A stretch of 64,000 nt of DNA. Origin: Nitrosopumilaceae archaeon (lineage in GTDB: Archaea; Thermoproteota; Nitrososphaeria; Nitrososphaerales; Nitrosopumilaceae). Position 1 is the stretch's first letter. Every line of letters begins with the position of its first letter. Made by a program: the position numbers and the translations under genes. The notes under the pieces are model-generated. The model searched no databases. It was given only the letters and a program-made list of their open reading frames with translations, and was not told the DNA's origin. The stretch spans positions 35,138 to 99,137 of the forward strand of contig CBDATR010000005.1 in assembly GCA_965200155.1 (NCBI GenBank), given 5' to 3'. Shown here one piece after another: positions 2,687 through 58,195 of the stretch.

Positions 2687-2708
2687 GGGACTTTTATCTA
2701 AAAGTCCA
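2687..2708 (+). mobile_element. 22-bp GGGAC...GTCCA micro-hairpin insertion
   Basis: GGGACTTTTATCTAAAAGTCCA flanked by direct ACTAG/ACTAG. Confidence 0.8.
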
Positions 2709-3007
2709 ACTAGAAGGTAGCGAAAGGATGTAACAGGCGATGATTAGTGGAGATATTCATGAAACCGTATTCAAGTGAGTGGACGTGACAGTCATAATCA
2801 TGTATTAACATCAAAGACACCGTTGCAAACCTTGCTCTATTCCCATACTGTACCTGCAATGACTAGGCGACTGGTGGGAAAAATCATTCCTGGACGCTCA
2901 GGTGGGATTCTGACCCACAACAGGAGTCCAAACACTACTTGGTTATGCTTATCTGTCCGACTAACAGACTTTTAGATTTCAGTGTCCGCCGCAATAACCC
3001 ATGGCAG

Positions 3008-3115
3008 GTATGAGTTCACCTGTGTCTAAATGGAACGGGTCATTCTATAACTGATCGCGACAGTTAAAGAACCGGTTCTTTTGTGCACAAGATTCCGGAA
3101 GACGTGAACTCATAC
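3008..3115 (-). mobile_element. MITE, 108-bp variant of the 92-bp family
   Basis: Same TIRs; TSD CATGGCAG; two internal segments replaced. Confidence 0.93.
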
Positions 3116-3123
3116 CATGGCAG

Positions 3124-3525
3124 TGGTCGCGGCTCCAAAGAGTATGTTTAGGACATTGGCATCCACGCCGGTGGACATCATTGTAAACATCAACATCATT
3201 AATCCACCCAGACCGGCAAATATCATCATGGTTAAAGGAAGCTGCTTTGGCGGAGGCCTTGTCTGCTTGCCAGTGGGCTTTTCCGGAATGACGCCATTCT
3301 TTACTGCCTCCAGGCATACGAACAGTACCGACCATGATTGTGTGATTTCAGGTAATAGTATTCCACGCCGCAGAATGAGCAGGGCTTAGTGGGTATTCCG
3401 TGATCAAACTCCCGGCCAAGATCCACCATGCAATTCTTGCAGTAGTGGCCGGGAATTCGCCACATGTTCTGGAACTTGTATTTCTTCCAGCTTAGCGTCT
3501 TGCCACAACCACTACAGTTAGTCAT
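3124..3525 (-). pseudogene. Frameshifted small Cys-rich (zinc-finger) hypothetical protein
   Basis: CxxC pairs (CSGC, YCKNC, CSFC) split over two frames; MITEs on both sides. Confidence 0.5.
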
Positions 3526-3545
3526 GTCTTTCTCTCATCATTACC

Positions 3546-3637
3546 GTATGAGTTCACGTCTTCCGGAATCTTGTGCACAAATCACATTAACTGTCGCGAT
3601 CAGTTATGCGTAAATTTAGACACAGGTGAACTCATAC
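3546..3637 (+). mobile_element. 92-bp MITE
   Basis: TIRs; TSD TCATTACC. Confidence 0.95.
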
Positions 3638-3968: not shown

Positions 3969-4444
3969 TATAGCGCCCACCATAACTTCTTGTCCGGTAG
4001 ATGACCGTACTTTTATAGAACAACCACTAGAGTAGAATCACCAGATGACGGATGACATAATTTGGACCGTCATTATACCGTTGAAGAAAAATAAGGAGTT
4101 CTCCCGGCGCGCCAAGATATTTGGTTACACATACGATTACGTGTATAACAGGGGCGGTGTCCGAGATTACGCTGGGCGGTTACTACATACCTGGAACCAC
4201 TCGTGAATTGAAACATGATCCGGCCAAGGTCAAGAATAAGAACGAGTACACCAAGTCACCATACGACCTAAAGAAGGGCGATCCACTTTACGTGAATCAG
4301 CTACCGCGTTCTAGAACGGTTATCAGGGGACGGTTTACCCGTACAACCGGAAGCGTCAGGGTGGGAATAATGGCGACAAGCCAAAGCCATGTGCTGCCCA
4401 GGAACGAGGCATCATATTCTCAATGACTTATGGTGACCGCTATA
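3969..4444 (+). mobile_element. Internally deleted TIR-flanked tnpB element (T1)
   Basis: Ends TATAGCGCCCACCATAA / TTATGGTGACCGCTATA; both halves match the ends of 60464-62109. Confidence 0.85.
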
Positions 4445-6689: not shown

Positions 6690-7636
6690 TCAATAGTACG
6701 ACAAGTAAGTCCGATTAGGATCCGGCGTACAGTAGTTCAGATTGCACAAGCCAGATGGTAAAGAGAATAACAGAGGAATCAAGACAAAAGAGGCGTTGCC
6801 ACAACTAAAATAGCTCAAGACCAACATGAGTACAAGACACGTACGAAGATTGTTAACCAGAGAACGGGAACGACTCAAGTAAAGATAGGCAGGCCCATGA
6901 TACTAATCACCGCCACCCAGATACGAATGGTAACTGAAGCAATACAGCAAGGATCCCGCCGGAGTAGTACGTATTGCAAAGAGGCTTAGATAGAATTACA
7001 ATATATCGCGTAGTATATCGCATAATGAAAAAGAACGGTACAGCAGGATCATCACCTGCAAAGTCAGAGTGGGTACACTATGAGCGTAAATATTCCAATG
7101 CAATGTGGCACTGGCATGTCATGAAAGATGAGCGCTTCAAGGGACTGAATCTCATAGATGATGCATCCAGGTGTATAGTCGGGGCGGCACTATTTGAGCA
7201 TGCAACCTCAGAGAACGCCGTTCTATTACTGAGACTGGCAATGAAACGATTCGGCGCCCCTGCATCTCGGATAACGGCGCGTGTTTCGTAGGACAATAAA
7301 AGGGCAAAAAGAACTGGAAACCCACTATTCTAGGAAGAACTGCTGGATCAATACATCATACTAATCAGTTCCAGACCATGCCACCCGCAGACAAATGGCA
7401 AACTGGAGCGCTTCCATGGAATGATTGAGGATAAGATATGGCATTATGACAGTCTCCGGGATTATGTGGACTACTACAATGAGAGAAGGTTGCACTTCTC
7501 ACTGGATATAGATAACGGCGAAACGCTGCTCATGGCCTTTAGGAATAAAAAGGCGACCCAGACAATCAGGGCAAATGATGTAAAATGGATGGAGCGAGAT
7601 ACCAATGACTAGCGGACCGACTTTTCATACATTACA
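6690..7636 (+). mobile_element. IS481-family element, pseudogenised (copy B)
   Basis: IDDASRCIVG, DNG, HPQTNGKLERF, YYNERRLHFSL fragments in shifted frames. Confidence 0.87.
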
Positions 7637-18463: not shown

Positions 18464-18572
18464 TCCTGCTAACAACTTTAACCCGGAATGTCGAATATAC
18501 TCCTAAATGGCATGACTTGTCCATTTTCGATCACTTCCTGCTAACAACTTTAACCCGGAATGTCGAATATAC
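18464..18572. repeat. Repeat-spacer-repeat: 37-bp duplication around a 35-bp insert
   Basis: TCCTGCTAACAACTTTAACCCGGAATGTCGAATATAC at 18464-18500 and 18536-18572. Confidence 0.9.
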
Positions 18573-19530: not shown

Positions 19531-20765
19531 CTGGAATAATAACGTCTGTACGTGGTCGTGTAATACTGAACAGCCGCGGTTCCCAAACACTTGAGATAGA
19601 TATATCTGACGGTACCAGCACGGGTCGAGCCGCGGCGCCCTCCGGAGCCAGTGTGGGCATGCACGAGGCTGTATCTTTTCCCGACGGTGGGCCTCAGGCA
19701 TCACTGAATTTTTTAGATAATCATGTATCTGTGCTGTTGGGCGTTGATCCCGGTGACGCCTCTGCAATTTATGGTGCGCTGCGAGAGCTGGATCCTACCC
19801 CCTCCTATTCTGTGATGGGCGGTTCCCTTGCATATGCTGTATCGCTGGCGGCAGCACAATGTGCCGCAAAGTCAAAGAATTTGCCCCTCTATCATCATCT
19901 GGGCGGACGGGACTCGTACCGCTTGCCTATTCCTCTTGGTAACATACTGGGCGGGGGGGCCCATGCAGGACCGGGCACTCCGGACATACAGGAGATACTG
20001 GTATGCGCTCTCAGGCCGGATACCATTCATGATGCTATATGGACCAACATTGCTATACATCAAGAATTAGGCCGCAAACTCTCCAGTCTGGATGGGAGTT
20101 TTACCCGAGGTCGCGGTGATGAGGGCGGCTGGGCTCCGGTTATGACAAACGAGAAGGCATTGGAGACATCGGCTCGCGTATGTGAGTCTCTGGGTTATAC
20201 CCTGGGCAAGGATGTATCTCTGGGGGTTGATTTTGCCTCATCAACGCAGTATGATGCCAAGTCTGATCGGTATGTTTACGAGCGCGCAGGATTTAGCAAC
20301 GACGCTGGGGAGCAGATAGAGTTTATCTCAGATATAATACGGCGATACAAGCTGGTGTATGCCGAGGATGGGGTACATGAGGAAGACTTTGATGGAATGG
20401 CCACGCTAACCTCCCGATTCCCTGATACGCTGGTGACCGGCGATGATTTGACGGTAACCAACCATACCATACTGGAAAAGGCCGCATCCATGCATTCGTG
20501 CAACGCAGCCATACTGAAGGTCAACCAAGCGGGATCCCTGTACGAGGCTCTCCTCTTTGCGCGCACTGCACAGGAAAGGAGTATTCAGCTGGTAACCTCG
20601 CACCGTTCAGGCGAATCCACCAACTCACATATAACACATGTGGGTATAGCTACTGGCTCTTCACTGTTAAAGGTGGGTGTAGTGGGGGGTGAACGGGTCG
20701 CTAAACTCAACGAGCTTCTGCGAATATCTGAGCATGATTTAATACAAGGCCTCGCAACCCTGTAA
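19527..20765 (+). CDS. eno: Enolase
   Basis: NSRG, PSGAS, GDEGG, LKVNQ, SHRSGE, ERVAKLNELL. Confidence 0.96.
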   Translation: MTGIITSVRGRVILNSRGSQTLEIDISDGTSTGRAAAPSGASVGMHEAVSFPDGGPQASLNFLDNHVSVLLGVDPGDASAIYGALRELDPTPSYSVMGGSLAYAVSLAAAQCAAKSKNLPLYHHLGGRDSYRLPIPLGNILGGGAHAGPGTPDIQEILVCALRPDTIHDAIWTNIAIHQELGRKLSSLDGSFTRGRGDEGGWAPVMTNEKALETSARVCESLGYTLGKDVSLGVDFASSTQYDAKSDRYVYERAGFSNDAGEQIEFISDIIRRYKLVYAEDGVHEEDFDGMATLTSRFPDTLVTGDDLTVTNHTILEKAASMHSCNAAILKVNQAGSLYEALLFARTAQERSIQLVTSHRSGESTNSHITHVGIATGSSLLKVGVVGGERVAKLNELLRISEHDLIQGLATL

Positions 20766-20768
20766 TAC

Positions 20769-21380
20769 ATGCAGGCAAGCGCCCCGGATATCAAGAATAG
20801 GGTTCTGACAACGGGTATACGGGTGGGAACTGGTGTAAGGACCAAATTTATGCGGCCATACATAACCTCTGATCCTCTTGACGGTTACTACATGTTCGAC
20901 ATTGAGATAACATTGCAGCGTATAGATACTGCGGCCCGATTCATACATGGTATAGGTCCCAGCAAGGTCTTGGTGTGTAGCGGTCGTGAATATGCATACT
21001 CACCCATTGAAAAATTCTCCGAACTGGTGGGTTGCATGATGAAGCTCAGTCGCTTTATGCCCGGCACCTTGACCAATCCGTCACTAAAGTACTATATTGA
21101 GCCCAAATTGCTACTGGTCTCGGATCCACAAGTTGATGAGCAGGCTGTCATAGAGGCGACTAACGCGGGCATACCCGTGATCGGGGTGGCCAACACAGAT
21201 AACCTGACGTCGAATATAGATCTTGTAATTCCTGCAAACAACAAGGGCCGTCGCTCACTAGCTACCATATACTGGTTACTGGCGCGCCGTGTTCTCATAG
21301 TGGGGGGCAAGCTGGAAGAAGATGGCGTCATGCCCTATGAGATAGACGACTTCGAGACAAAGAATTTTGAGGGAGAGTAA
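20769..21380 (+). CDS. rps2: 30S ribosomal protein S2
   Basis: RFMPGTLTNP, IPANNKG. Confidence 0.96.
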   Translation: MQASAPDIKNRVLTTGIRVGTGVRTKFMRPYITSDPLDGYYMFDIEITLQRIDTAARFIHGIGPSKVLVCSGREYAYSPIEKFSELVGCMMKLSRFMPGTLTNPSLKYYIEPKLLLVSDPQVDEQAVIEATNAGIPVIGVANTDNLTSNIDLVIPANNKGRRSLATIYWLLARRVLIVGGKLEEDGVMPYEIDDFETKNFEGE

Positions 21381-22179
21381 AGTCCGTCCTCCTGCCGTAT
21401 CTGGACTCTTTTATCCCAGGGGTGGCCTAGCGCGTAGCATAACTGATATCTTTCAAGCCGGTCCGGGATTACCTCCGGGTATGTCTAACAGTACGATAGC
21501 CGTGGTAGTTCCACATGCCGGTTATCAATACTCGGGAATGGTGGCTTCATACTCGTATTATGAGATATCCGGGAACGAGTATCCATACGCTGTAATGGTG
21601 GGTCCGGATCATCGGGGATTGGGAACTGGAATATCCTTGTCCGGTCACGCGCAATGGGAGACTCCATTGGGCGTATCACCTGTACATGAATCATCTGCCT
21701 TGGAGGGGTGTGGTGCCATGTGTGATGTTAGAGCCCATGCATCCGAGCACAGCCTGGAGGTACAGCTGCCCATGATCCAGTATGTCTTTGGGCGTGTGCC
21801 CATACTTCCAATACTGCTCTCGGATCAGTCTATGGTTACCGCGGAGATGCTGGGCAGGCATCTGGCACTGAAAGTGGGTCCGGATAATCCAGCAATGATA
21901 GCCTCCTCGGATCTCACGCATTATGCTCCTGATAGTGTGGTCCGTGATAAAGACCGACATGCCATAGACGCAATGCTGGACTTGGATATTGGGCGATTCT
22001 ATGACACGCTGAGAGGGATGGGAATTACTGCGTGTGGATATGGGGCCATATCCACAATCATGCAGTATAGCATAGAGATGGGCGCATCCAAAGGGCGCCT
22101 ACTGTCATATGTGACCAGCGGCGACACCGGTGGCGACAGAGAGTCGGTAGTGGGATACTGTGCTGTAGCATACGAGTAA
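21367..22179 (+). CDS. MEMO1 / AmmeMemoRadiSam protein B
   Basis: PHAGYQYSG, EHSLEVQLP, SSDLTHY, VVGY. Confidence 0.93.
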   Translation: MRESKVRPPAVSGLFYPRGGLARSITDIFQAGPGLPPGMSNSTIAVVVPHAGYQYSGMVASYSYYEISGNEYPYAVMVGPDHRGLGTGISLSGHAQWETPLGVSPVHESSALEGCGAMCDVRAHASEHSLEVQLPMIQYVFGRVPILPILLSDQSMVTAEMLGRHLALKVGPDNPAMIASSDLTHYAPDSVVRDKDRHAIDAMLDLDIGRFYDTLRGMGITACGYGAISTIMQYSIEMGASKGRLLSYVTSGDTGGDRESVVGYCAVAYE

Positions 22180-22403
22180 CTGTGACGTCATGATGTGCCA
22201 AACACTTCTGAATATGGGGGAGATTTGACTTAGTGTGCGTCTTTTGCTCCCTGACCATGTTGCGCAGTCAACCTAGTGACGTCTTAATCACTGTATGGAT
22301 GATGTGTTCTCTCAAGCCAAATATTATAATCTGCAGAGTCGGCGCCCCGGTGTGCGGCGCCAAAGGACAGAAAGGTAATAAGCTCACGTCACACTGAAAA
22401 TTC

Positions 22404-23072
22404 ATGTCTGAGATTCCCAGTGTGTCCAGGGAGCCACTTAATCTATTGTTCAATATGGGTGGCGTATCGAGGAAGAACGTATGGGATATAGATTTGCTGA
22501 ACATACTAAACATGCTTGCCCGTGTGCTGGAGAAGAAAGACGGCGGGGATCTTCGCATGGCTGGTGTGGCAATTCTCTCCTCGACGCTAATATACAAAAT
22601 GAAGGTGGATAGCATATTTGCCCTGCACCAGGAGACCGTAACCAAGAGTCCACCTCCAAAAAGAAAGCGTGTGGACATAGCAGAGATGCCCATGCCATAT
22701 CGCCATCAATCCACATATGCTGTTACACTGGATGAGTTATTGGCTGAACTTCAAAACTTGGTGGTGTCCATTGCCAATCCTAGGACCCGCCGGTCTTCAC
22801 GACTGAACATAACTCCAGTCGATGTGCCGGATATAAAGGAGCATATGCTGTCGCTGGAGCTTGCGATAAAACCGTACCAAGATCTGATACTGGAAAAACT
22901 ACGGCACCTGGAACGCACACGATTTCAGGATATGGCATCTGAACTGGATTCTTTGGATTCTGTCCGCCTGTTCTTTGCAATACTCTTCTTGGCTAGCAAT
23001 GGCAGGATAACCCTGGAACAGAATGGCGATGATATTATGATTATGATGTCCGACAATCAGGCGACTCACTGA
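22404..23072 (+). CDS. scpA: Chromosome segregation kleisin ScpA
   Basis: NVWDIDL, VTLDELL, FFAILFLA..GRITLEQ. Confidence 0.85.
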   Translation: MSEIPSVSREPLNLLFNMGGVSRKNVWDIDLLNILNMLARVLEKKDGGDLRMAGVAILSSTLIYKMKVDSIFALHQETVTKSPPPKRKRVDIAEMPMPYRHQSTYAVTLDELLAELQNLVVSIANPRTRRSSRLNITPVDVPDIKEHMLSLELAIKPYQDLILEKLRHLERTRFQDMASELDSLDSVRLFFAILFLASNGRITLEQNGDDIMIMMSDNQATH

Positions 23073-23367
23073 GTATCGTGTACTTGTGACTAGCTTGAGA
23101 CGGAACACGCCCTTGACAGTTTATATCGCCCAAGTAATTTTCCATATGTGCCGCCATGGCAGATTCTAAATCCTGTTATTTCACTACGCGACATTCGCAT
23201 AACAAGGCAGCACAGCATACTTTAGGGCTGGCGGGGATAATTCCCTACCGGTTTAGGGTGGTTTGCTTATACTGTTCCATGAAAACATGCCTCAGTTTGG
23301 AGCGTTCTAAACGACTACCGGACGCTGGATGGATCTCTATAAATTAGAGGTGCCTATGTACTATGTT

Positions 23368-23760
23368 ATGAGAAAGACTGTAGAGAATCTTGCCACCAGT
23401 AAGATAACCGGTGGCAGGAGGCATCCGTTGCGCATACGCCGAAAATACGAGATTGACAGGTATCCCAATGAGGCCCTGAACAGGGATCAGCAGGTGACAG
23501 TAATTCGGCGTGTCCGGGGCCGCAACAGCAAGACGGCTCTCAAGACCGTAGATTACGTGAATCTGGCCGGAGCTGACAAAAAGGTGATACGGACAAAGAT
23601 TCTGAAGGTACTGGAGAACCCCACCAATAACGACTACCAGCGGCGGGGTGTTATAACACGAAGGGCCATACTGGAAACCAAGGAAGGCAAGTGCAGGGTA
23701 GTATCTAGGCCGGGCCAAGATGGTGTAGTCAACGCAGTCCTGATGGAGTCCAAGAAATAA
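23368..23760 (+). CDS. rps8e: 30S ribosomal protein S8e
   Basis: KITGG, RVRGRN, SRPGQDGVVNAV. Confidence 0.95.
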   Translation: MRKTVENLATSKITGGRRHPLRIRRKYEIDRYPNEALNRDQQVTVIRRVRGRNSKTALKTVDYVNLAGADKKVIRTKILKVLENPTNNDYQRRGVITRRAILETKEGKCRVVSRPGQDGVVNAVLMESKK

Positions 23761-23784
23761 GTAGTATTCATGTAGACTCTATGT

Positions 23785-24600
23785 ATGGGTAAGCGCGTTG
23801 CAATTTTGGGTTGTGGTGTCATAGGCACACATCTTGCCTTGGCCATAGATCGTGGTTATATTCCTGCCACTCTGCATGCCGTATATGATGAGGATCCACT
23901 GGCATCAGAGCGACTTGCTGACAAGCTAAAGTCCAGGCCCATAATATCCCAAAATGCTCATCTACTTTCGTACCCGCCTGTGGATGTGGTGGTGGAGGCT
24001 GCCTCGCAGACGGCGGTACGTAACGCGGGTCTGAGTGTACTGCAGAATCGTCGGGACCTGATTATAATGAGCGTCGGCGCCTTGCTGGACGATAGTATCC
24101 GGGAGACACTGGAGGATGCGTGCAGCCATTATGGTTGTAGGGTTTACCTCCCCTCCGGTGCCATAGGCGGCCTGGATGCCATTGCTGCGGTCAAGCAAGA
24201 GGTAGAAAAAATATCCATAACCACCACAAAGAGTCCCTCCTCTCTTGGAGGTGCACCTTACTTTGAGGAGTTTCACACTGATCCCGCTACCATACAGGAA
24301 AGGACTGTTCTGTTCTCTGGTACTGCAACAGATGCAGTAAAACTATTCCCGGCTAACGTGAATGTGGCTGCCCTTGTCTCCCTGGCCGCTGGCCGTAACG
24401 CTACCGTTACTGTGGTGGCGGATCCTGGCACTACAAAAAATATCCACGTCATAGACGCCTCTGGAACATTTGGCTCCATGTCGTTTGTGATACATAATGT
24501 GCCAGATGCTGATAACCCTCGTACCAGCAGGCTGGCAATACTGGCTGCCATAGAAACATTATATCGATACTGCTCGTATACCGTGAGAATTGGCACTTAA
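23785..24600 (+). CDS. nadX: L-aspartate dehydrogenase
   Basis: GCGVIG, VVEAAS, PSGAIGGLD, FPANVNVAA; next to nadA. Confidence 0.93.
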   Translation: MGKRVAILGCGVIGTHLALAIDRGYIPATLHAVYDEDPLASERLADKLKSRPIISQNAHLLSYPPVDVVVEAASQTAVRNAGLSVLQNRRDLIIMSVGALLDDSIRETLEDACSHYGCRVYLPSGAIGGLDAIAAVKQEVEKISITTTKSPSSLGGAPYFEEFHTDPATIQERTVLFSGTATDAVKLFPANVNVAALVSLAAGRNATVTVVADPGTTKNIHVIDASGTFGSMSFVIHNVPDADNPRTSRLAILAAIETLYRYCSYTVRIGT

Positions 24601-24676
24601 TGTTGGCAAAAATTGCCTTCATTAAAAGCAATAATAACCATATTCGACATTAACATTTCGCTTAAATCATGGATAC

Positions 24677-25636
24677 TTGTACATTCGATCTATGCAGGAG
24701 GATGTGGCTGACCGCATACGCCAGCTCAAGAAAGAGAAGAATGCCGTTATTCTAGCGCACAACTACCAGATACCCCAAGTACAGGATGTGGCAGATATAG
24801 TGGGAGACTCGCTAAACCTCTCCAGACAAGCCGCCAAGGTGGATCAGGATATCATTATATTTTGCGGCGTACATTTTATGGCGGAAACCGCGGCCATAAT
24901 TAGCCCTCAAAAACAAGTACTCATACCGGATCCTGATGCCGGTTGCTCGCTGTCTGACTCCATAACGGCATCGCAGTTACGAGAATGGAAGAAAGATCAT
25001 CCCGGTTCTGTGGCAGTAGGATACGTAAATACCACGGCCCAGATAAAGGCCGAACTTGACTATTGCTGTACCTCGTCCAATGCGGTGAACGTGGTGCGAG
25101 CCATTCCTGCAGATCAGGACATACTCTTTCTACCCGACATGTTCTTGGGGTCATATGTGGGCAAGATGACGGGACGCAAGAACATGTATGTGTGGGCCGG
25201 TGAATGCCATGTACACGCGGGTATTACCTCGCAGGATGTGGAAAAGAAGATGCGCGGCCTAGACGATGCCGAGTTTGTCATACATCCTGAGTGCAGCTGT
25301 ACCACTCCAATGTTATATGATCTGGCATCGGGCCAGTACCGCGACAGACCTGTGTCCATCCTGTCCACTGAGGGCATGATGAAGCATGTCAAGAATTCCA
25401 GATCTACCAGTTTTGTGGTAGCCACCGAGACCGGTATACTGCACAGGATGAGGCGGCAGAATCCGGGGAAACAGTTCTTGCCTGCCTCCGACAAGGCTGA
25501 GTGTCAATACATGAAGATGATAACCTTGGAGAAGGTGTATGATTCTCTGGCAAATGACAGATACCTAGTCACTGTTCCCTCGGACATATCCTCTCGTGCC
25601 CGCTTGGCCATAGACAGGATGCTGGCTATAAGCTGA
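24677..25636 (+). CDS. nadA: Quinolinate synthase A
   Basis: LAHNYQ, CGVHFMAE, AGCSL, HPEC. Confidence 0.97.
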   Translation: MYIRSMQEDVADRIRQLKKEKNAVILAHNYQIPQVQDVADIVGDSLNLSRQAAKVDQDIIIFCGVHFMAETAAIISPQKQVLIPDPDAGCSLSDSITASQLREWKKDHPGSVAVGYVNTTAQIKAELDYCCTSSNAVNVVRAIPADQDILFLPDMFLGSYVGKMTGRKNMYVWAGECHVHAGITSQDVEKKMRGLDDAEFVIHPECSCTTPMLYDLASGQYRDRPVSILSTEGMMKHVKNSRSTSFVVATETGILHRMRRQNPGKQFLPASDKAECQYMKMITLEKVYDSLANDRYLVTVPSDISSRARLAIDRMLAIS

Positions 25637-25853
25637 GATTGCCCCTTCCTGAATTATGCCACACACCCTTCGGGCAGATTGCGTAAGATTTCTTTTGATA
25701 TGGGAAATGTTCTTTGCACGTCAGTATAAACCGGAATTATATTGCATAATCTCTCACGTGTAGTATTTATCTCTCAGTGGCATTTCTAAATCATATCGGT
25801 GCTGTATGACCAATCGCCCTGTCTCGTTTGTGTAATGGCCAGTGAATCCATAT

Positions 25854-26802: not shown

Positions 26803-26846
26803 ATGTGATGACAATACTAATAAACTATCGACCATACTTTATCAAA

Positions 26847-28890: not shown

Positions 28891-28949
28891 TTTTTTCTCA
28901 GTTTAAGTTGTCTCACGCGTTCAGATGCCAACCCGGCTTGTATGAGAGT

Positions 28950-29069: not shown

Positions 29070-29084
29070 AAAGGCTGGCGCATA

Positions 29085-35900: not shown

Positions 35901-36275
35901 ATGGTGGCGGACAAGATTCACGCCCGAGCCAGGGGCCAGGTACAAATGCTCACAAAACAGCCCACCGAGGGCAGGGCTAGAGGTGGCGGACTGAGATTCG
36001 GCGAGATGGAGAGGGACTGTCTCATAGCTTACGGCGCATCCATGATACTCAAGGACAGACTGCTGGATGAGTCTGACAAGTCTGACGTATATGTCTGTGA
36101 GCGTTGCGGTCTTGTGGCATACCATGACGTAAAGCAGCGCAAGTATGTATGTCGCATCTGCGGCGACAAGGCCAGCGTCTCGTCCATATCCGTAGCATAT
36201 GCTTTCAAACTGCTACTACAGGAGATGCAGAGCCTCAACGTTGCACCCAGATTGCTCATACGGGAGAAGGTATAA
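32931..36275 (+). CDS. rpoB: RNA polymerase subunit B (Rpo2)
   Basis: GDKFASRHGQKG, GGLRFGEMERD. Confidence 0.98.
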   Translation: MNETSKWWPVIQDILRRDGIDRQHLNSFNDFLNKGLQEIIDDVGQVEIENADYPYRIQMGRVKLQKPRMMELDGSITHITPGEARLRNVSYSAPIMMEASVVEEGQILESRYVHIGDIPIMVKSNKCILYNLSPEKLVGHGEDVHDPGGYFIINGSERVVVGLEDLSYNKIMVDKETVSGNIVNKAKVYSSISGFRSKLEIIMKNDGLLLSKMPSTPVDIPVAVLMRALGLESDQDIAETVSMNEEIQDQLEISFEKTRNDVKTTKDAIVYISKRIAPGMLEEFQIKRAETLLDWNLLPHLGKKTENRKEKAQFLGEATCKLLELRLGFIVPDDKDHYGNKVIKFAGHLLSEIFRTSFKNLIRDMKYQLERSGQKRGINAVAAAIRPGIITDKINNAIATGNWGRGRVGVTQLLDRTNYLSTISHLRRIQSPLSRTQPNYEARDLHSTHFGRICPNETPEGSNCGLVKNLALSAIISVETPAEEIIEKLYELGTVQFDDAMDIRLDSTRVFVNGRLIGYYQDGEGLTTSLRDMRRQDKIHTHVGISYHPAEIPGAANRLYVNCNAGRVLRPLIIVDNGKSRLTDAILSKIQQNLISWHDLLAMGVIELVDANEEENTHIRLDDSDMKNNTHLEIFSPAILGAGASTIPYPEHNQSPRNTYGSAMAKQSLGFSTPMMNTSTYVRQHIMLYPQTPIVNTKSMGLLGLEDRPAGQNCVVAVLPFDGYNIEDAIVISKAAVDRGLGRTFFFRIYDAESKQYPGGERDTFEIPNSEDRIRGYKGERAYKLLEDDGVVSSEANVEGGNILIGKTSPPRYNQEFREVESVGRERRDTSIGVRPSENGVVDTVVMTQSNEGGKMYKIRVRDMRVPEIGDKFASRHGQKGVLGILAKNEDLPYTADGISPDVLINPHAFPSRMTVGMFMESICGKAAALRGSKFDGSAFVGEKMDAVRQAMNETGFHYSGKEIMYDGRTGKPFPVDVFIGVVYYQKLHHMVADKIHARARGQVQMLTKQPTEGRARGGGLRFGEMERDCLIAYGASMILKDRLLDESDKSDVYVCERCGLVAYHDVKQRKYVCRICGDKASVSSISVAYAFKLLLQEMQSLNVAPRLLIREKV

Positions 36276-39200
36276 TGTCCTCTGTTCAGACTATAAAATC
36301 CGTTGACGGAATACGTTTCTCTGTATGGTCACCGACGGAGATTCGCAAGTATTCTGTGGCAGAGATAACCGCCCCGGAGACGTACGACGAGGAGGGTACT
36401 CCGGTACATGGTGGCCTGATGGACGGACATTTGGGCGTTCTGGAACCGGGACAAAAGTGTCTAACTTGCGGAAACACCGCGGCGTTGTGCCCGGGACACT
36501 TTGGCCATATCGAGCTGGCTGAGCCTGCAATGCATATTGCATTCATCGATAACATACACAAGCTGCTCATCTCCATCTGCCGATCCTGCTCCCGGCTAAA
36601 AATACCCCAGGAGGATTTGGACGAATTTCTCAGAATACGCAACAAGCAAGCTGCGTACTCTATCATATCACAAAAACGCATACCTGAACAGATTATAGAC
36701 AAGGCCCGCAAGACCGTGGACTGCCCACATTGTGGAAAAAAGCAGTATGATCTGATATTTACAAAGCCTACAACCTTTGTGGAAAAGGCAGACAATGAAG
36801 AGCACAGGCTGCTTCCCATAACCATACGTAACCGATTCTCTCAGGTGATTGACGATGATCTCGTACTCTTGGGATATGATCCAGACACTGCAAGACCGGA
36901 GTGGTTCATACTGCAGGCATTGCCTGTCCCGCCTGTCACTGTTCGCCCTTCCATAATACTTGAGACCGGTATAAGATCCGAGGACGATCTTACTCACAAG
37001 ATGGTTGATATCATACGGGTAAACCAGCGACTAAAGGAGAGCAAAGAGGCGGGGACGCCACCTCTCATAGTGCAGGATTTGGTAGACCTATTACAGTATC
37101 ACATAACCACGTACTTTGACAACGAGGTATCGGGAATCCCGCAAGCCCATCACCGTTCCGGCAGACCACTCAAGACACTCACACAAAGACTGAAAGGCAA
37201 GGAGGGGAGATTCCGTGGCTCCCTATCCGGAAAGAGGGTGGACTTTTCCAGTAGGACTGTAATATCGCCGGATCCCAATCTTGATCTCTCTGAGGTGGGT
37301 GTTCCTGAAATTGTTGCCATAAAACTCACTATACCGGAGATGATTACCGAATGGAACATCGAGGATATCAAGAAGCTTGTCATAAACGGACCGGATACGT
37401 ATCCCGGCGTAAACTACATCATGAGACCTGATGGTGTCAAAATAAGGCTGGACTTTGTTGAAGACCGCTCTGCCATATCAGAGAATCTGGAGGTGGGGTA
37501 CCGGGTGGAGAGGCACCTGGCTGATGGTGATATTGTAATGTTCAACAGGCAGCCATCGTTGCACCAAATGTCCATAATGGCACACTACGTCAAGGTATTG
37601 CCGGGGCGCACCTTTAGGCTCCATCCGGCAGTATGTCCGCCTTATAATGCGGACTTTGATGGCGATGAAATGAACCTGCATGTGCCGCAGAGTGAGGAGG
37701 CGCGCGCAGAAGCCATACTACTTATGCGTGTCCAGGACCAGATAATATCGCCCAGATATGGCGGGCCCATAATCGGTGGATTGCGGGACTTTGTTACAGG
37801 CGCGTATCTTTTGACAAAGGATGACACGGTACTGGATATACATGATTTTGCCAACTTGGCCATGCTGGGCGGATATGATGGTACCATGCCCGAACCTGCG
37901 CACAGTAACGAGAAGGGACCGGTATACACGGGCAAGCAATTATTCTCGCTCTTCCTGCCTGATGATTTCAACTACACCATGACATCAAAATGGTCCAAGG
38001 GAACTGTGGGAACCGAAAAGGATGTGGTGATAAAGAATGGCCAACTTATACAAGGCGTAATAGACAAGTCTGCCATAGGCGCCGAGGAGCCGGAGAGTGT
38101 ACTGCACCGTCTTGCCAAGGACTATGGAAATACAACTGCCAAAACGTTCCTTAACTCCATACTGGTCATAGTAAAACAGTTCATTACGCATTATGGTTTC
38201 AGTTATGGATACGGTGACTTGGAGATAGGTGGGGAACGACGGGGTGCCATACTTAATGGCATACAGGACGCGTATACTCAGGTATCTACACTTATGGAGG
38301 ATTTGCGCAATGGTGACTACAAGGCAACAAGAGGCCTATCTGATACGGAGTCACTGGAGCGTGATATAGTCAATGAACTATCCAAGGCCAGAGACCTGTC
38401 TGGCACTACGGCAGATCGGGCTATGGGTATGTCTAATCCCGCCAGAATAATGGCTACCACTGGCGCCAGGGGCTCCTCCTTGAATATAGGCCAGATGGCC
38501 GGAGCCTTGGGGCAGCAGTCCAGACGGGGAAACCGACTGATGGATGGCTATACTAATCGTGCATTACCTCACTTTGAGGAGTATGATGAGAACCCGGATG
38601 CCAGCGGGTTTGTTAAATCCAATTATAGGGACGGTCTCTCCATACTGGAGTTCTTCTTCCACGCAATGGGTGGGCGTGAAGGCTTGGTGGACACCGCGGT
38701 ACGTACCCAGCAGAGCGGTTACATGCAGAGGAGGCTTATCAATGCCTTGGAACACATAAAGCTGGAATACGACGGAACGGTACGAGACCCTCATGGTCAC
38801 ATAGTACAGTTCCTATACGGTGAAGACGGCATAGATGTGGCAAAGAGTGATCATGGCGAGGCATTCAACATAGAGCGCAAGATAGAGTCCCAGCGTATGG
38901 TGGACTCTGGCAGTCCTGCTACCTGGGAGGAGATAGACGAATTATTGCTCAAGTATACCAACGTCTTCAACCAGCACCTAAAGAATAATGTGGCAGCTGC
39001 AATGCAAAAATCTAACTTATCTAGGATCGGAGTTGAGCGGGTATGCAAGCAGAGCTTGGACTTGTACAACAAGGCCAAGGTTGAACCCGGTCAGGCTGTG
39101 GGTATAGTAACGGCACAATCCATCGGCGAACCCGGCACACAAATGACACTGCGTACATTCCACTTTGCTGGCATACGTGAAAGAAACGTAACGCTGGGCC

Positions 39201-40096
39201 TGCCCCGGCTCATCGAGCTTGTTGATGCGCGTAAAAAGCCCAACACACCCACCATGGACATATTCCTGAAGAAGGATGTAGCCACAGACCAGAAAATAGC
39301 CCTGGATGTAGCACAGAATGTGAAGCAGACCCGAATTAGAAACCTAATACTTGATACCAATACAGACTATAGTACCTTCATTACTTTACTATTCAACGAG
39401 AAGCGAATGAGGGAGCGGGGTATTACCGTGGAAAGTATTGCAGATAGCCTACAATCCAACAAGAAGTTCAAGACTGAGCCCGGTGACATGCAACTACTCT
39501 TGCGTTTCCACTCGGAGACCGATGCATCTACAGTCATAACCGTCCAGAACAAGATACTGAACACAACCATAAAGGGAGTGGCTGATGTGGCGCGCGTTAC
39601 CGTAATAAAGAAAGACAACCAGTGGAGTATTCAGACCACCGGCTCCAACCTTTCCAAGGTACTGGAGATTGAGGGTGTAGACAAGAACAGAATACTTACA
39701 AACAACGTCTTTGAGATAAGCGAAACTTTGGGCATAGAAGCTGCCCGCAATGCGCTTATACACGAGCTTACGACCACACTGGAGGATCAGGGTCTGGAAG
39801 TTGATGTGCGGTATATCATGCTGGTAGCAGACCTGATGTGCTCTCGTGGTCACATGCAGCAGATAGGCCGTCATGGTATTGCAGGTACCAAGGACAGTGT
39901 TCTGGCTAGGGCAGCCTTTGAGATTACCGTTCCTACAATCGCCCATGCGGCGTTGGCCGGAGAGGTGGAACAACTCAAGGGAGTAACTGAAAATGTTATT
40001 GTTGGAAGCAACATACCAATAGGCAGTGGCACTGTTGACTTGTACATGCAGGTAAGCAAGAGACGTGATGATGTGGACACATCATCGAATACATAG
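36275..40096 (+). CDS. rpoA: RNA polymerase subunit A, A'/A'' fused (Rpo1)
   Basis: NADFDGDEMN; continuous into AQSIGEPGTQMTLRTFH; ATG overlaps the rpoB stop. Confidence 0.98.
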   Translation: MSSVQTIKSVDGIRFSVWSPTEIRKYSVAEITAPETYDEEGTPVHGGLMDGHLGVLEPGQKCLTCGNTAALCPGHFGHIELAEPAMHIAFIDNIHKLLISICRSCSRLKIPQEDLDEFLRIRNKQAAYSIISQKRIPEQIIDKARKTVDCPHCGKKQYDLIFTKPTTFVEKADNEEHRLLPITIRNRFSQVIDDDLVLLGYDPDTARPEWFILQALPVPPVTVRPSIILETGIRSEDDLTHKMVDIIRVNQRLKESKEAGTPPLIVQDLVDLLQYHITTYFDNEVSGIPQAHHRSGRPLKTLTQRLKGKEGRFRGSLSGKRVDFSSRTVISPDPNLDLSEVGVPEIVAIKLTIPEMITEWNIEDIKKLVINGPDTYPGVNYIMRPDGVKIRLDFVEDRSAISENLEVGYRVERHLADGDIVMFNRQPSLHQMSIMAHYVKVLPGRTFRLHPAVCPPYNADFDGDEMNLHVPQSEEARAEAILLMRVQDQIISPRYGGPIIGGLRDFVTGAYLLTKDDTVLDIHDFANLAMLGGYDGTMPEPAHSNEKGPVYTGKQLFSLFLPDDFNYTMTSKWSKGTVGTEKDVVIKNGQLIQGVIDKSAIGAEEPESVLHRLAKDYGNTTAKTFLNSILVIVKQFITHYGFSYGYGDLEIGGERRGAILNGIQDAYTQVSTLMEDLRNGDYKATRGLSDTESLERDIVNELSKARDLSGTTADRAMGMSNPARIMATTGARGSSLNIGQMAGALGQQSRRGNRLMDGYTNRALPHFEEYDENPDASGFVKSNYRDGLSILEFFFHAMGGREGLVDTAVRTQQSGYMQRRLINALEHIKLEYDGTVRDPHGHIVQFLYGEDGIDVAKSDHGEAFNIERKIESQRMVDSGSPATWEEIDELLLKYTNVFNQHLKNNVAAAMQKSNLSRIGVERVCKQSLDLYNKAKVEPGQAVGIVTAQSIGEPGTQMTLRTFHFAGIRERNVTLGLPRLIELVDARKKPNTPTMDIFLKKDVATDQKIALDVAQNVKQTRIRNLILDTNTDYSTFITLLFNEKRMRERGITVESIADSLQSNKKFKTEPGDMQLLLRFHSETDASTVITVQNKILNTTIKGVADVARVTVIKKDNQWSIQTTGSNLSKVLEIEGVDKNRILTNNVFEISETLGIEAARNALIHELTTTLEDQGLEVDVRYIMLVADLMCSRGHMQQIGRHGIAGTKDSVLARAAFEITVPTIAHAALAGEVEQLKGVTENVIVGSNIPIGSGTVDLYMQVSKRRDDVDTSSNT

Positions 40097-47476: not shown

Positions 47477-47587
47477 GTTGCCACAACCAAAATAGCTCAA
47501 GACCTAAACATCGCGAGTGGCAGTGAAATATATTCGCAATATGCATATGATGTTGCCACAACCAAAATAGCTCAAGACCTAAACATC
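47477..47587. repeat. Repeat-spacer-repeat: 36-bp duplication around a 39-bp insert
   Basis: GTTGCCACAACCAAAATAGCTCAAGACCTAAACATC twice; single in IS481 copies A-C. Confidence 0.92.
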
Positions 47588-48142: not shown

Positions 48143-48869
48143 GGACAATAAAGTGGCAAAAAGAACTGGAAACCCACTATTCTAGGAAGAACTGCTGGAT
48201 CAAGACATCATACTAATCAATTCCAGGCCATACCACCCGCAGACAAATGGCAAACTGGAGCGCTTCCATAGAACGATTGAGGACGAGATATGGCATTATG
48301 ACAGTCTCCGGGATTATGTGGACTACTACAATGAGAGAAGATTGCACTTCTCACTGGATATAGATAACGGCGAAACGCCGCTTCAGGAATAAAAAGGCGA
48401 CCCAGACAATTAGGGCAAATGATGCAAAATGAATGGAGCGGGATGCCAATGACTAGCGGACCGACTTTTCATACATTACATTTCACACGAGTCTGTGTGG
48501 GAAAACCCATGATACTAGGTCAATTGTTCGTATCTAACAACTTGGTTTAGACGTGCAGGGTGGGAGAGGTGATTCTGCGCATACGGTCTATTATAGCATT
48601 TTTATGATACAATTTCCATTAAACATTGGCTATATAGATTCCTGCGTTATGGGAACGAGGCGAGTTACGCGCAGTATACGCGTCCTTTGCAAACTGTCAT
48701 GCATTACAAAATACTTGCGCATTCCCATATGGACCGGAGTGACAGCGCCGGAGAGAGCATGCAATTTTGGAGCGTAAGGGCTGGTACCGGTTTATCGTGA
48801 AAATGCGCAGTACTGGAATGCGGTATCACTCACAGCAATAATTAAGTGGCAATATTGTAATTTTATCAC

Positions 48870-54270: not shown

Positions 54271-54597
54271 TGCCGTGACTTTGGTATAGAAAATTAAGGA
54301 ATTATATACATGGGTTACCTGTATATTCTCTTATATTTGCATAACTATTCCCAACTTTGTAAACACGTATTCGTGTTATCGGGTGTAGTTCGTTACACTA
54401 ATCCTGCGCCTCTTTCACCTTGGCATTCAATCCTGTCGCCATTCATGGTGGGTTCCGCACACAATCGTTCCCTGATGTAATCCAAGTTCGCATCCGGCCT
54501 CAGCCGCTCCAACATCACATCATCCATGGCTGTGCTGGATTCATCCTGCCACAGGTTCATAATGATATCGAATGGTTCCTATATCTGCCGAGAACCA

Positions 54598-54744
54598 GTA
54601 TGAGTTCACGTCTTCCGGAATCTTGTGCACAAAAGAACCGGTTCTGTATGAGTTCACGTCTTCCGGAATCTTGTGCACAAAAGAACCGGTTCTTTAACTG
54701 TCGCGATCAGTTGTGCGTAAATTTAGACACAGGTGAACTCATAC
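54598..54744 (+). mobile_element. MITE variant with 48-bp tandem duplication of its left end
   Basis: TIR starts at 54598 and 54646; TSD GAGAACCA. Confidence 0.9.
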
Positions 54745-55457
54745 GAGAACCAGCCTGACAGAATTACCAAGTTTGAATAATTCTCATACGTCATGCAGAA
54801 CCGTTCCCATTTCACACCAGTGGCCGCGGTCATGGGAAGAATAATTCCAAGATATCCCCGTCTATTACATGAATCACCCGGATCAGGGTTCAAGTTACAC
54901 ACCCAGCTTGAAAATCTGAATTACAAGTACATTCAATCGAAAGATCACGACTTTCTTTGGCATTACACGCTGACAACGCCAAATACATAGAACGTGGGAG
55001 AAACCTCCTAGTTCAGTACTACCCTGCATGGATCAAGATGAACCATGCCAAGGAGGGGCGCCCCCTTGCGCGGATGCTCTGAATTTCGTGTCCATAAACT
55101 TGGATCTCCATGACATTGGGAATGCTTCAGAATCAATCGTTCATCTACGTCACTAAGACGAATCCAGAATGGTGACCTGCTCGGATCCAGACAAGCTAAT
55201 GACTATGGTTCTGGACTCCCACAGTCCAATCGCGGCGAATAGATACAAAGACGCGTATTCATAAAAAACACACGTGCAAGAAATGCAGTCGTGGTTACGG
55301 ACGACAGTACCGGCGATGCAGAACCGCATGCTGAATCAAATATCTACAAACACAAGGATCAGGTGGAACTAATATCCGGAACCGGGGTTCCCCTATCCAG
55401 GTGAGTTGCGTAGACTAACGGTAATTGTTATTAACTCTACAAGGAACGTACTAAATT

Positions 55458-57158
55458 ATGGGAGGACGAGAAACCACAATACTATTTGGTATGGTTGCCA
55501 TAGCTGCCTTGGGAACGGTTATGACTGTATATGCTCAGGACACAATATCCGGACTTGAGGTAACCGGTACGTCCGATGGCGCCACCATGTCATGGGATAG
55601 ATATGATAGAATGGAAAATTACGTGGTTCGTGTTGATGATACACATGGCCAGCGAGTAATGGTGACACATACAAGCGGAATCTCATATACGATAACCGGC
55701 TTGGCGTCCGATACCTCATACCAGGTATCGGTCCGGCTCAAGGGTGACTCGTCGGTAAAATCAGATACGATAACCTTTACTACACTTTCTGATACCTCAT
55801 CCAAAATAAATGACGATGATAATACCTCTGCCAAGATAACATTGTATTCTCCTGAAGTCACCAGTGACGGTGCCTCCATATCCTGGGATAGATATGATAG
55901 AATGGATCGATATGTTATACGAGTCTTGGATAGTAACGGTGACAGAGTACAGGTCAAGCAGGCTACAGGAACCTCATACATTATAACCGGCCTGGAATCC
56001 AACACCTCATACCAGGTATCTGTCCGGCTCAAGGGTGACACTTCCGTACAATCTGATACAACAACCTTTACCACGCTTGGTACGGGTACAGGCAAGATAG
56101 CACTGAACACAATTAGATCCACCAGTGACGGTGCCTCCATATCCTGGGATAGATATGATAGAATGGATCGATATGTTATACGAGTCTTGGATAGTAACGG
56201 TGACAGAGTACAGGTCAAGCAGGCTACAGGAACCTCATACATTATAACCGGCCTGGAATCCAACACCTCATACCAGGTATCTGTCCGGCTCAAGGGTGAC
56301 ACTTCCGTACAATCTGATACAACAACCTTTACCACGCTTGGTACGGGTACAGGCAAGATAGCACTGAACACAATTAGATCCACCAGTGACGGTGCCTCCA
56401 TATCCTGGGATAGATATGATAGAATGGATCGATATGTTATACGAGTCTTGGATAGTAACGGTGACAGAGTACAGGTCAAGCAGGCTACAGGAACCTCATA
56501 CATTATAACCGGCCTGGAATCCAACACCTCATACCAGGTATCTGTCCGGCTCAAGGGTGACACTTCCGTACAATCTGATACAACAACCTTTAGGACTACA
56601 AAATCGGTCGGCGCACCCAAGTTCACCAGTTCCATAGGCAATATAACAATGGAAGAGGCCCAGGTCCGTATCATAACCTTGAATGCGACGGATCCCAATG
56701 GTGATTCCTTGGTATATAGAATCACAAACCAGGACGATTCCCCCACGCCCGTTGTTTTTTACATAGATGATGACAAGCTGTATCTTGTTGCTACCAGACA
56801 TGAATCTGGCACATACAAACTGCGTGTTACAGTGAGTGATGGAACGAATATAGACAAGGACGACTTTGTGCTTACCATAAATGATGGTGCCATTCCGCCT
56901 CCCTCCATTACTAGAATAACAGATACTACTATAACTATACAACTCCCCAGTGAGGACGACGACCCGCGTTGTGTAGCTGCCTATGCCATTTCCTATATTC
57001 CACCTAAGTTCGCGGTTGGTGTTCAGACAGAGTCCGGGGAGCCTATTACAATAACGGACCTAACACCTAGCACAGTTTATGATGTCACCGTATACAACAG
57101 ATGTCACAGTTATTATTTGAGCCACTTCACGTTTACGACAACGGATAATCCTTCCTAA
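55458..57158 (+). CDS. Secreted fibronectin type III repeat protein
   Basis: Signal peptide, four FN3 units, then cadherin-like and FN3 domains. Confidence 0.9.
   Translation: MGGRETTILFGMVAIAALGTVMTVYAQDTISGLEVTGTSDGATMSWDRYDRMENYVVRVDDTHGQRVMVTHTSGISYTITGLASDTSYQVSVRLKGDSSVKSDTITFTTLSDTSSKINDDDNTSAKITLYSPEVTSDGASISWDRYDRMDRYVIRVLDSNGDRVQVKQATGTSYIITGLESNTSYQVSVRLKGDTSVQSDTTTFTTLGTGTGKIALNTIRSTSDGASISWDRYDRMDRYVIRVLDSNGDRVQVKQATGTSYIITGLESNTSYQVSVRLKGDTSVQSDTTTFTTLGTGTGKIALNTIRSTSDGASISWDRYDRMDRYVIRVLDSNGDRVQVKQATGTSYIITGLESNTSYQVSVRLKGDTSVQSDTTTFRTTKSVGAPKFTSSIGNITMEEAQVRIITLNATDPNGDSLVYRITNQDDSPTPVVFYIDDDKLYLVATRHESGTYKLRVTVSDGTNIDKDDFVLTINDGAIPPPSITRITDTTITIQLPSEDDDPRCVAAYAISYIPPKFAVGVQTESGEPITITDLTPSTVYDVTVYNRCHSYYLSHFTFTTTDNPS
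55859..56591. repeat. 261-bp near-perfect intragenic tandem repeat (~3 copies)
   Basis: CCAGTGACGGTGCCTCCATA at 55861, 56122, 56383. Confidence 0.93.
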
Positions 57159-57419
57159 CACATATCTGTGGAGTACAAAAAAGGCTATCTGTAGGCGGAG
57201 ACTTATGAATATCGTCCTGTCCTAGTTGTATCATTATGGGTCGCTAGTGGGGTCTCCTGTATGGTCCATTTTCAGTATCTTGCATTGTAACCGTTAAGGT
57301 TAGGTACAGGATATGCATTAACGTTGGTAATACTATCCCGGATGGAGTAGTCCGTATTCCAAAGAGAGTTGCATTCACACCGTACCCATTTACGCTGTTC
57401 TGACTGTATGATATGTAAG

Positions 57420-58195
57420 CAGGTGGCCAGCCATCCTATTATCATGGTTATCGTATCCAACAGCCTTATGTTGAGCCGTCCGGTAAACTCGTTCATCGAT
57501 GTATTGCGTAAACATGATAGAAGACGCCGTAAACCCCCGTTTTAGTAAAATTTCAGAACGACTCGAATCAATGGTGTAACATATGGCGGACATATTCCCC
57601 AGCGCTATGCTTCACGCTCATGATTTTTCAATGACTTGTAAGCCGTGTTTTCGTCAGTGCATTTGGTGGTATATGCCTAGGCATTCTCTTATCAAGGCGG
57701 GCCGCAGTCGTTTTCGGGAGCGGTTTGGCGTGTATTGTTCCAGTCTTTTATGCCGACAACCGCGGTTTTGTTCGCGGTTCCCTTCCTCATCTCCTTGCCG
57801 CCGATGTACATCTCGTCCATCCATCTTGTAATCTGGACTGACTAGCGTTCTTCATTACTCCCTCAAACGATGTACTAGGAACCACGCCGATTTCTGTGTG
57901 ATGCCCAAGTCGCGGTACAGTTTCATACCGGAGACGACTTTCAGGTTTGTGGCTAACAGGCATGTTACTATCGACCAATTCTGGTTGGACTTTTTTTTAA
58001 GAGTCCCCTGGTAACTAATTTTGGACTGCTGCATAATGGTCCCGTACTTGACGCTAAAGAACCGGTTGCATTCTATGCATCGATGTGGCATCTTTTTGTG
58101 AGCGGACTCGCAAGTCGTGCTAGAGCCGCAGTGGGGGCATTTGCTTCCGTCCTTCCAGATTTTCGACTCAAACCATTTCGTCATCCGGGAACATG
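57420..58195 (-). pseudogene. IS1595-family transposase remnant
   Basis: CPHCGS..CIEC..FSVKYGT zinc ribbon, LGITQKSAW, MDEMYIGG, EFTGRLN. Confidence 0.85.
57986..58007 (-). mobile_element. 22-bp micro-hairpin insertion
   Basis: TGGACTTTTTTTTAAGAGTCCC flanked by CTGGT/CTGGT; adds 9 codons in frame to the IS1595 ORF. Confidence 0.88.

Follow-up and report, generated by a model that had tools for sequence, protein, structure and literature searches.

Very short hairpin repeats are known from several kinds of genome, among them the small dispersed repeats (SDRs) of cyanobacteria, reportedly described by Elhai and colleagues in 2008. SDR4-6 of Nostoc and other cyanobacteria are hairpins of 21-27 nt, considered the smallest of mobile elements, and the insertion point of SDR5 lies between nucleotides 3 and 4 of HIP1 (PMC4390886, in excerpt). 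The GC clusters of yeast mitochondria (e.g. GC42) and the hairpin elements of fungal and sponge mitochondria are short palindromes with a very short putative duplication, and the available excerpts of PMC4478555 give no established mechanism for them. In hairpins of the REP and PATE type it is the folded single strand that is recognised; they occur in clusters and in some cases lie in frame in genes (PMC3116915, PMC6006769, PMC3733652, in excerpt). The NTS/SRM hairpin repeats that accompany Ssn nucleases are oriented, symbiont-enriched and bordered by non-palindromic flanks, and only their single-stranded DNA is recognised (Chenal et al. 2025, PMC11893778); archaea occur nowhere in the available text of that paper. 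Here we describe a family of hairpins of 19-25 nt in the chromosome of a sponge-associated Nitrosopumilaceae archaeon, whose DNA occurs in sponge-metagenome runs. The analysis started from a window of 64,000 nt (G000:C5:35138-99137, contig CBDATR010000005.1; "the window" denotes this whole stretch) and was extended to the assembly, which comprises 2.38 Mb in 51 contigs and is 87.6% complete, so that searches for family members and driver genes cover the genome except for an absent 12% or so. The hairpins are probably, though by no means certainly, a non-autonomous, structure-dependent family of mini-transposons moved by enzyme-mediated transposition.

A preliminary description of the window had placed in it three hairpins, each between two copies of a pentamer (ACTAG, ACGAG or ACCAG), and a pattern search recovers all three exactly, GGGACTN10AGTCCA occurring at 2687-2708 (+), 26588-26609 (+) and 57986-58007 (-):

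2682-2713 (+): ACTAG, hairpin GGGACTTTTATCTAAAAGTCCA (2687-2708), ACTAG; from pattern, flanks and fold
26583-26614 (+): ACGAG, hairpin GGGACTCTTATTTAAGAGTCCA (26588-26609), ACGAG, within an IS481-like transposase frame; from filled and empty paralogues and fold
57981-58012 (-): ACCAG, decayed hairpin GGGACTCTTAAAAAAAAGTCCA (57986-58007), ACCAG, in frame in an IS1595-type transposase fragment; from 27-bp-shorter paralogues

A fourth match with one mismatch (58022-58043) lacks the flanking repeat. The resulting count of four compares with 0.17 expected by chance and was reached by none of 100 shuffles, which is the excess over shuffled sequence that the description had proposed to look for. Folded as single-stranded DNA, the first hairpin gives -8.3 kcal/mol (z -6.05), the second -7.2 kcal/mol (z -4.21) and the decayed third -2.9 kcal/mol (z -0.51). 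The third had been said to split an IS1595 transposase between SYQ and NW with an in-frame 27 bp, and this is exact: the fragment (open reading frame 57855-58184, minus strand; Pfam Zn_ribbon_IS1595, E 4.2e-5, 23.9 bits, under the 25.4-bit cut-off) reads SYQ[GTLKKKSNQ]NW, and two paralogues (C13:31995-32290 and C7:12751-12902) read SYQSW and are shorter by exactly 27 bp. The second introduces an in-frame TAA (GTLI*) into its host frame, for which empty paralogues exist as well. No such control is available for the hairpin at 2687, because the only further copy of its locus (C24:373545-374366, 99% identical) is likewise filled and no DNA homologous to the site was found in 20 relatives searched for an empty orthologue. 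Two of the three window hairpins, at 26588 and 57986, thus have empty-site controls and are true insertions.

The copy at 26588 had also been described as absent from sibling IS481 elements. This is correct for the three siblings in the window, but genome-wide 45 of 85 copies carry it. The host and the window's empty sites are as follows:

25854-26802 (+): IS481-like element with rve integrase core, host of the 26588 hairpin; ~113 loci in the genome
1511-1532 (-): empty site in a sibling IS481-like copy, single ACGAG in the sequence
7423-7444 (+): empty site in a sibling IS481-like copy, single ATAAG in the sequence
48275-48296 (+): empty site in a sibling IS481-like copy, single ACGAG in the sequence

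An intact-looking copy of this element matches Pfam rve with E 4.4e-12, its own target duplication is ~11-12 bp, and in one copy the open frame terminates at the hairpin-borne stop. Besides the 45 filled copies (43 with one hairpin, two with two in tandem), the 85 that span the site include 38 empty ones, with a single pentamer (ACGAG in 20, ATGAG in 8, ATAAG in 4, others in 6), and two unrelated rearrangements. The hairpins are insertions relative to paralogous empty sites and duplicate 4-5 bp of the target. Repeated insertion within the IS481-like family was considered, as filled and empty states are scattered over its tree (22 changes vs 24.7 in shuffles) and hairpin diversity (pi 0.004) is below that of the flanks (0.036-0.058). 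This was dropped: r2 between ordinary polymorphisms falls from 0.385 at <=20 bp to 0.029 at 21-50 bp, and flank diversity is concentrated in a few high-frequency, partly CpG-type columns. With linkage lost beyond 20 bp, a single insertion followed by copying and reshuffling therefore suffices. The hairpins are multiplied passively when their host insertion sequence is copied, and independent events are therefore counted per site, which by hand count gives roughly 20 rather than ~100.

The IS481-like family is also of note in its own right. Its 74 full-length copies are extreme mosaics in which common polymorphisms more than 20 bp apart are no longer linked, and many variable columns resemble CpG-to-TpG/CpA decay (CACGG to CATGG/CACAG, ACGAG to ATGAG/ACAAG). 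This suggests rampant short-tract conversion, or a hypermutable, possibly methylated, CpG.

The three copies first noticed, all of them real, belong to one subtype of a far larger family with many stem sequences and with arrays, one of which (29282-29354) had been missed in the window. A pattern of GG, a stem of at least six pairs and CC, followed by AAYNAG, occurs 98 times in the genome and twice in the reversed genome, which served as the control for the family. About 26 distinct hairpin sequences were collected (e.g. GGGACGGTTTACCCGTCCA, GGGGCGGTTTACCCGCCCA, GGGGCTACAAAGTAGCCCA, GGGGCGGGGAACCGTTCCCCGCCCA), and members lie also within a TnpB-type element (at three sites), in same-direction arrays and in intergenic DNA. 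The element is 19-25 nt long and consists of 5'-(G/A)GG, a 6-11-bp stem with a short loop, and CCA(A)-3'. A search limited to elements of <=40 nt in total that combine perfect arms of 7 bp with AA and an exact duplication of 4 bp finds 27 against none in the control, with the duplications CGAG (14), CAAG (3), CTAG (3), CCGG (3), CCAT (3) and TGAG (1). The reverse complement of the non-palindromic duplications was not seen among these 27; the orientation is therefore fixed, as had been claimed, and GGG..CCAA always lies on the strand where the target reads YNRG. Identity of the flanks at four of four positions holds for 38 of 205 hairpins and for 0 of 77 in the control.

The target had been proposed to be ACNAG with a 5-bp duplication. 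The duplication is real, but its length and sequence are better given otherwise. Among 29 site clusters, which probably include some chance hairpins, the flanks agree in 20-22 at the inner four positions and in 13 at the outermost of five, and at one site of the TnpB-type element (site C) the empty form reads TCCGG and the filled form TCCGG, hairpin, ACCGG. The simplest description is therefore a 4-bp duplication (YNRG) and an element that ends in CCAA; as A frequently precedes the target, we write it (A)YNRG. Hairpin GGGGCGGTTTACCCGCCCA is flanked at different sites by ATGAG/ATGAG, ACGAG/ACGAG, TCCGG/ACCGG and TCCGG/ACCAG, so that the repeat derives from the target and not from the element. 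The alternative that the element carries its own left pentamer (ATGAG stands on the left in 0/47 and on the right in 28/45) was dropped, as one hairpin has different matching flanks elsewhere.

Stem changes are compensated, pairing being kept while the sequence differs widely between members. At stem depths 3-7 of the 26 distinct cores, 118 of 130 cells are Watson-Crick pairs; when the 3' arms were shuffled 1000 times, the mean was 61.8 and the maximum 84. At depth 3, 14 cores have A-T and 12 have G-C; at depth 5, 14 have T-A and 10 have G-C. Many stems are AT-rich, and loops vary between sites. These features bear on the two readings offered in the preliminary description, an ultra-minimal mobile element and the footprint left when a larger transposon with inverted repeats collapses to its two ends. 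The latter might be recognised in the resemblance of the two arms to abutted inverted repeats and in the loops that differ between sites, yet it is close to refuted: stems vary at nearly every position bar GG/CC, so that many parents rather than one would be required, none of the major resident insertion sequences has the same ends, and the number of long pairs that combine 7-bp arms with AA and an exact duplication of 4 bp stays at control level (18 vs 10). A search for long elements with GGACT..AGTCC ends and a 5-bp duplication, which had been expected to reveal the transposase, found none within 8 kb. The former reading agrees with the filled and empty paralogues, the site-specific duplications, the single orientation and the counts of 98 vs 2 and 27 vs 0.

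Outside the IS481-like host, the window holds three further occurrences of the family:

61754-61777 (-): hairpin GGGACGATTTACCAGTCCA with ACAAG, site A of the TnpB-type element; by comparison with site A
4327-4350 (+): hairpin GGGACGGTTTACCCGTACA with ACCGG in the TnpB-type element, the left flank of site A abutting the right flank of site C; by comparison with the intact element
29282-29354 (+): same-direction array of GGGGCGGCCATTCCCGCCCA, GGGGCGGTTTACCCGCCCA and GGGGCTACAAAGTAGCCCA, ATGAG after each, with a degenerate fourth unit to ~29375; by sequence and fold

The TnpB-type element (Pfam Cas12f1-like_TNB above cut-off, OrfB_IS605 below cut-off) is filled in 22 and empty in 2 of 24 copies at site A, filled in 21 and empty in 3 of 24 at site B, and filled in 26 and empty in 5 of 31 at site C; at site B the hairpin adds eight residues within a conserved motif, between RYTS and QTC. 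The junction at 4327-4350, where site A contributes its left flank and site C its right flank, indicates that ~1.1 kb was lost by deletion between two copies of the hairpin; recombination between two copies of the hairpin deletes the intervening DNA. One TnpB-bearing element (L039, G000:C10:368100-369900) has terminal inverted repeats of ~25 bp (TGTATAGCG..CCATAAGTCTTTG) that are unlike classical IS200/IS605 ends, and no TnpA was found in the assembly.

The hairpins also pile up in same-direction arrays, which occur at several intergenic places, several of them just downstream of genes. The window array 29282-29354 folds into three hairpins (-21.5 kcal/mol, z -3.40). A paralogous array on contig C35 (L047, G000:C35:29300-29600, minus strand) has six identical 24-nt units (GGGAGCGGTTTACCCGCCCA with ATGAG) where the window has one, and is without the third unit of the window array (29282-29375). 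A contig of 261 nt from an RNA library aligns to 29303-29587 with 24 gaps and is uninformative on splicing or strain polymorphism. Nearby in the paralogues, a 43-nt tandem repeat, GGGGTGGCATAGCCACGAAATTGTTCTAGCCGTCCAACCATG, occurs three times at G000:C9(-) ~168900-169100 and also on C35; its tail, ..GTCCAACCAG/ATG, is as in the hairpin family, and it adjoins a paralogue of window segment 29170-29260.

Two hairpin patterns were searched in 40 related genomes, 9 of them of the same genus, and none of the 40 was positive. The hairpin pattern gave one chance-like, unrelated match among GTDB species genomes and 19 unrelated single matches in metagenome contigs, none of which had the flanking signature. 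The family is seen here in this one genome only, among the 41 searched.

Arrays just downstream of genes, conserved stems, and the sense orientation of all five gene-borne sites relative to their host genes (a small number, on which we do not build) are what might be expected of a structural motif kept by host selection, such as a transcript-end hairpin, a protein-binding hairpin or an RNA element removed from transcripts. We consider this highly improbable, as most copies lie within dead transposase genes, one of them with an in-frame stop, and searches of 9 further genomes of the genus did not find the elements. Nor do the flanks form the bulge-helix-bulge splice motif, which in archaea has two 3-nt bulges around a 4-bp helix at the intron-exon boundaries; 26583-26614 folds as a plain hairpin with unpaired flanks.

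A run of identical units like that on C35 resembles slippage, and bears on a further alternative, copy-choice during replication. Here a nascent YNRG end would switch via microhomology to another hairpin locus, copy the hairpin and the next YNRG, and return, with the stems kept perfect by template switching within the hairpin and no dedicated enzyme required. The compensated stem changes could stem from quasi-palindrome correction, an established mechanism; other small palindromic replacements are present inside a 92-bp MITE (miniature inverted-repeat transposable element) of this genome; and no transposase was found. Such copying would, however, bring along the flank of the donor, whereas one and the same hairpin has site-specific flanks that are equal on the left and right within a site, and it predicts neither the strict orientation at a defined YNRG target nor the confinement to one of 41 genomes. 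On balance it is an unlikely source of the family.

The observations presented above led us to favour enzyme-mediated transposition and to propose the following model. Only the termini and the fold are conserved, and recognition therefore appears to be of a folded single strand and not of a sequence. A trans-acting structure-specific nuclease or transposase would make a staggered, strand-specific cut of 4-5 nt at YNRG and join the hairpin in, presumably by way of a single-stranded intermediate, and gap filling after joining would yield the target duplication. Because every insertion would regenerate the target on both sides, the model would also explain the arrays. The enzyme may have been lost, may be encoded in the absent 12% of the genome, or may be of a class not yet tied to transposition. 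That these archaeal hairpins represent a transposon with a new type of mechanism, with an enzyme outside the classes known to move hairpin DNA, is a more tentative proposition, which we think doubtful though worth stating.

Several observations weigh against transposition. Duplications are often no longer perfect: 26 filled IS481-like copies read ACGAG..ATGAG, and ~9 independent sites have flanks that match at three or fewer of four positions. Repeated independent insertion within the IS481-like family could not be demonstrated, and no element-free sample was obtained for any single-copy site; public contigs from four runs on window positions 20001-40000 break within repeats between ~25880 and 30829. 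The assembly gave no match to the Y1-HUH transposase PF01797, for which the same search was positive in 6 of 14 control genomes, and none to the serine recombinase PF00239 or the tyrosine recombinase PF00589. PF01541 (GIY-YIG, E up to 0.1) matched one 532-aa frame only and no small Ssn-like gene, although this search could miss very divergent small homologues and genes within the absent part of the genome. The resident insertion sequences duplicate other lengths of target, ~11-12 bp for the IS481-like element and ~TA for the DDE_Tnp_4 element, and to our knowledge the single-stranded DNA transposases that recognise hairpins (IS200/IS605, RAYT) generate no target duplication. The ends of the IS481-like, DDE_Tnp_4, TnpB-type and IS66-MITE elements all differ from the hairpin ends.

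Other enzymes that cut or integrate DNA are present. The genome holds ~20 TnpB-type matches, one broken reverse transcriptase, and a Cas4-Cas1 fusion with Cas2 beside a CRISPR array of 288 repeats (C9). The hairpins might then be a by-product, in which a TnpB-type nuclease or Cas4-Cas1/Cas2 makes a staggered break that is filled in and captures small fold-back DNA; ~57 ectopic repeat-spacer-repeat events, described at the end of this text, show that off-array integration is evidently frequent in this genome. These events, however, duplicate 36-38 bp and not 4-5 bp, and no family hairpin lies in the CRISPR array, though AATGAGG is in every repeat. TnpB targets are not set by YNRG, being chosen by a guide RNA of ~16-20 nt, and captured DNA would not carry conserved GGG..CCAA ends. 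An origin of this kind is accordingly quite improbable. A sequence link between the hairpins and the CRISPR repeat, which share CAATGAGG, was also considered and judged to be chance, as other sites use ACGAG, ACCAG and ACAAG and the array is hairpin-free.

Of the known hairpin systems, those nearest in behaviour to the proposed mini-transposons are GC clusters, SDRs, REP/REPIN with RAYT and the Ssn/NTS hairpins. In GC clusters, as in this family, the fold is kept while the sequence changes, and units merge and shuffle (PMC4478555, in excerpt); the conserved fold, short duplication, turnover of array units and hairpin-hairpin deletion all recur here, with no relation of sequence or host. GC clusters are organellar, GC-rich, ~30-50 nt long and marked by an AG duplication, and their proposed drivers are intron-encoded endonucleases or reverse transcriptases (same excerpts). 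In contrast, the present family lies in an archaeal chromosome, measures 19-25 nt, ends in GGG..CCAA, duplicates YNRG and has many AT-rich stems. SDRs reportedly share precise insertion at a defined short site, whereas host phylum, sequence and target all differ.

The REP/REPIN-RAYT and IS200/IS605-PATE systems likewise have hairpins of 20-40 nt that stand strand-specifically beside a short sequence (PMC3116915, PMC6006769, PMC3733652, in excerpt). REPs are distinguished by a GTAG or CGTC tag, an accompanying Y1-HUH gene and the absence of target duplication, whereas the archaeal hairpins have no tag (their ends are GGG..CCA(A)), no PF01797 match in the genome and a duplication. An element of the PATE type would be expected to enter strand-specifically on the 3' side of a fixed tetra- or pentanucleotide and to bring its own right-hand cleavage sequence. 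Orientation and the YNRG context would fit a PATE-like element, but the matching site-specific flanks speak against a cleavage site borne by the element. NTS repeats end in ..GGGAAT-CYRG, compared with ..CCAA-YNRG here, and Ssn repeats flank a single-domain GIY-YIG gene (94 aa in N. meningitidis), with no duplication described in the available text (PMC11893778); the corresponding PF01541 match in this genome is the 532-aa frame alone.

MITEs, including the 92-bp IS66-linked MITE of this genome, resemble the family in being non-coding, in having inverted-repeat ends and a duplication, and in inserting into repeats. They are ~50-500 bp long and have their ends and duplication length in common with an autonomous insertion sequence, whereas the hairpins are 19-25 nt long, have no partner insertion sequence and have stems that are not conserved in sequence; their ends match no tested resident insertion sequence, and their 4-5-bp duplication differs from the ~11-12 bp of the IS481-like element and the ~TA of DDE_Tnp_4. 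The family thus lacks the defining features of MITEs, REP-RAYT and Ssn/NTS that could be tested.

No account of such a family in Nitrososphaeria came up in literature searches for archaeal and thaumarchaeal hairpin mini-elements, as judged from their listings. If the hairpins are mobile, they lower the size limit for elements with a real duplication to ~20 nt, in a cellular chromosome, and they would have spread without any enzyme known to handle hairpin DNA. How tiny hairpin repeats (GC clusters, SDRs, REP-like) spread, a question of long standing, would then become testable in a compact archaeal genome with many filled and empty controls. Should the mechanism be new, few transposable units with true target duplication would be as small, and the presence of a structure-specific integrase so far unrecognised in Nitrososphaeria would be indicated. 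For the host, the hairpins supply genes with in-frame or stop-bearing inserts, seed arrays and cause deletions, all of which annotation pipelines will misread.

Two further kinds of small insertion were observed in this genome. In some copies of the 92-bp MITE that lie in IS481-like elements (e.g. G000:C9:54064-55165 and C24:302478-303621), a short internal segment is swapped for a small palindrome such as AGAACCGGTTCT, and the long hairpins of site C hold a related core, GGAACCGTTCC, in their loop; insertion of palindromes in nested fashion may be a general feature of the genome.

The other kind emerged when the genome was scanned for direct repeats in two copies, 28-46 nt long and with a period of 64-84 nt, and arrays and CRISPR repeats were removed. 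The scan gave 67 events genome-wide, of which ~57 (hand count) have a period of 71-75 and mostly a repeat of 36-37 nt. This geometry matches that of the resident CRISPR array, whose 288 repeats are 36-37 nt long with a period of mostly 72-74. A second tool confirmed the four events that lie in the window:

18464-18572: ectopic spacer-like event
47477-47587: ectopic spacer-like event
61297-61409: ectopic spacer-like event
61638-61747: ectopic spacer-like event

Each of the four consists of perfect direct repeats of 36-38 nt, 72-75 nt apart, around 34-39 nt of unrelated DNA. These repeat-spacer-like events look like ectopic ('neo-CRISPR') spacer integration, of which we know of no report at such a scale in a natural genome. 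For E. coli that overproduces Cas1-Cas2, ectopic spacer integration has been reported (Nivala et al. 2018, cited in the available part of PMC7054753). The present genome appears to be a natural case of ectopic CRISPR spacer integration on a large scale.

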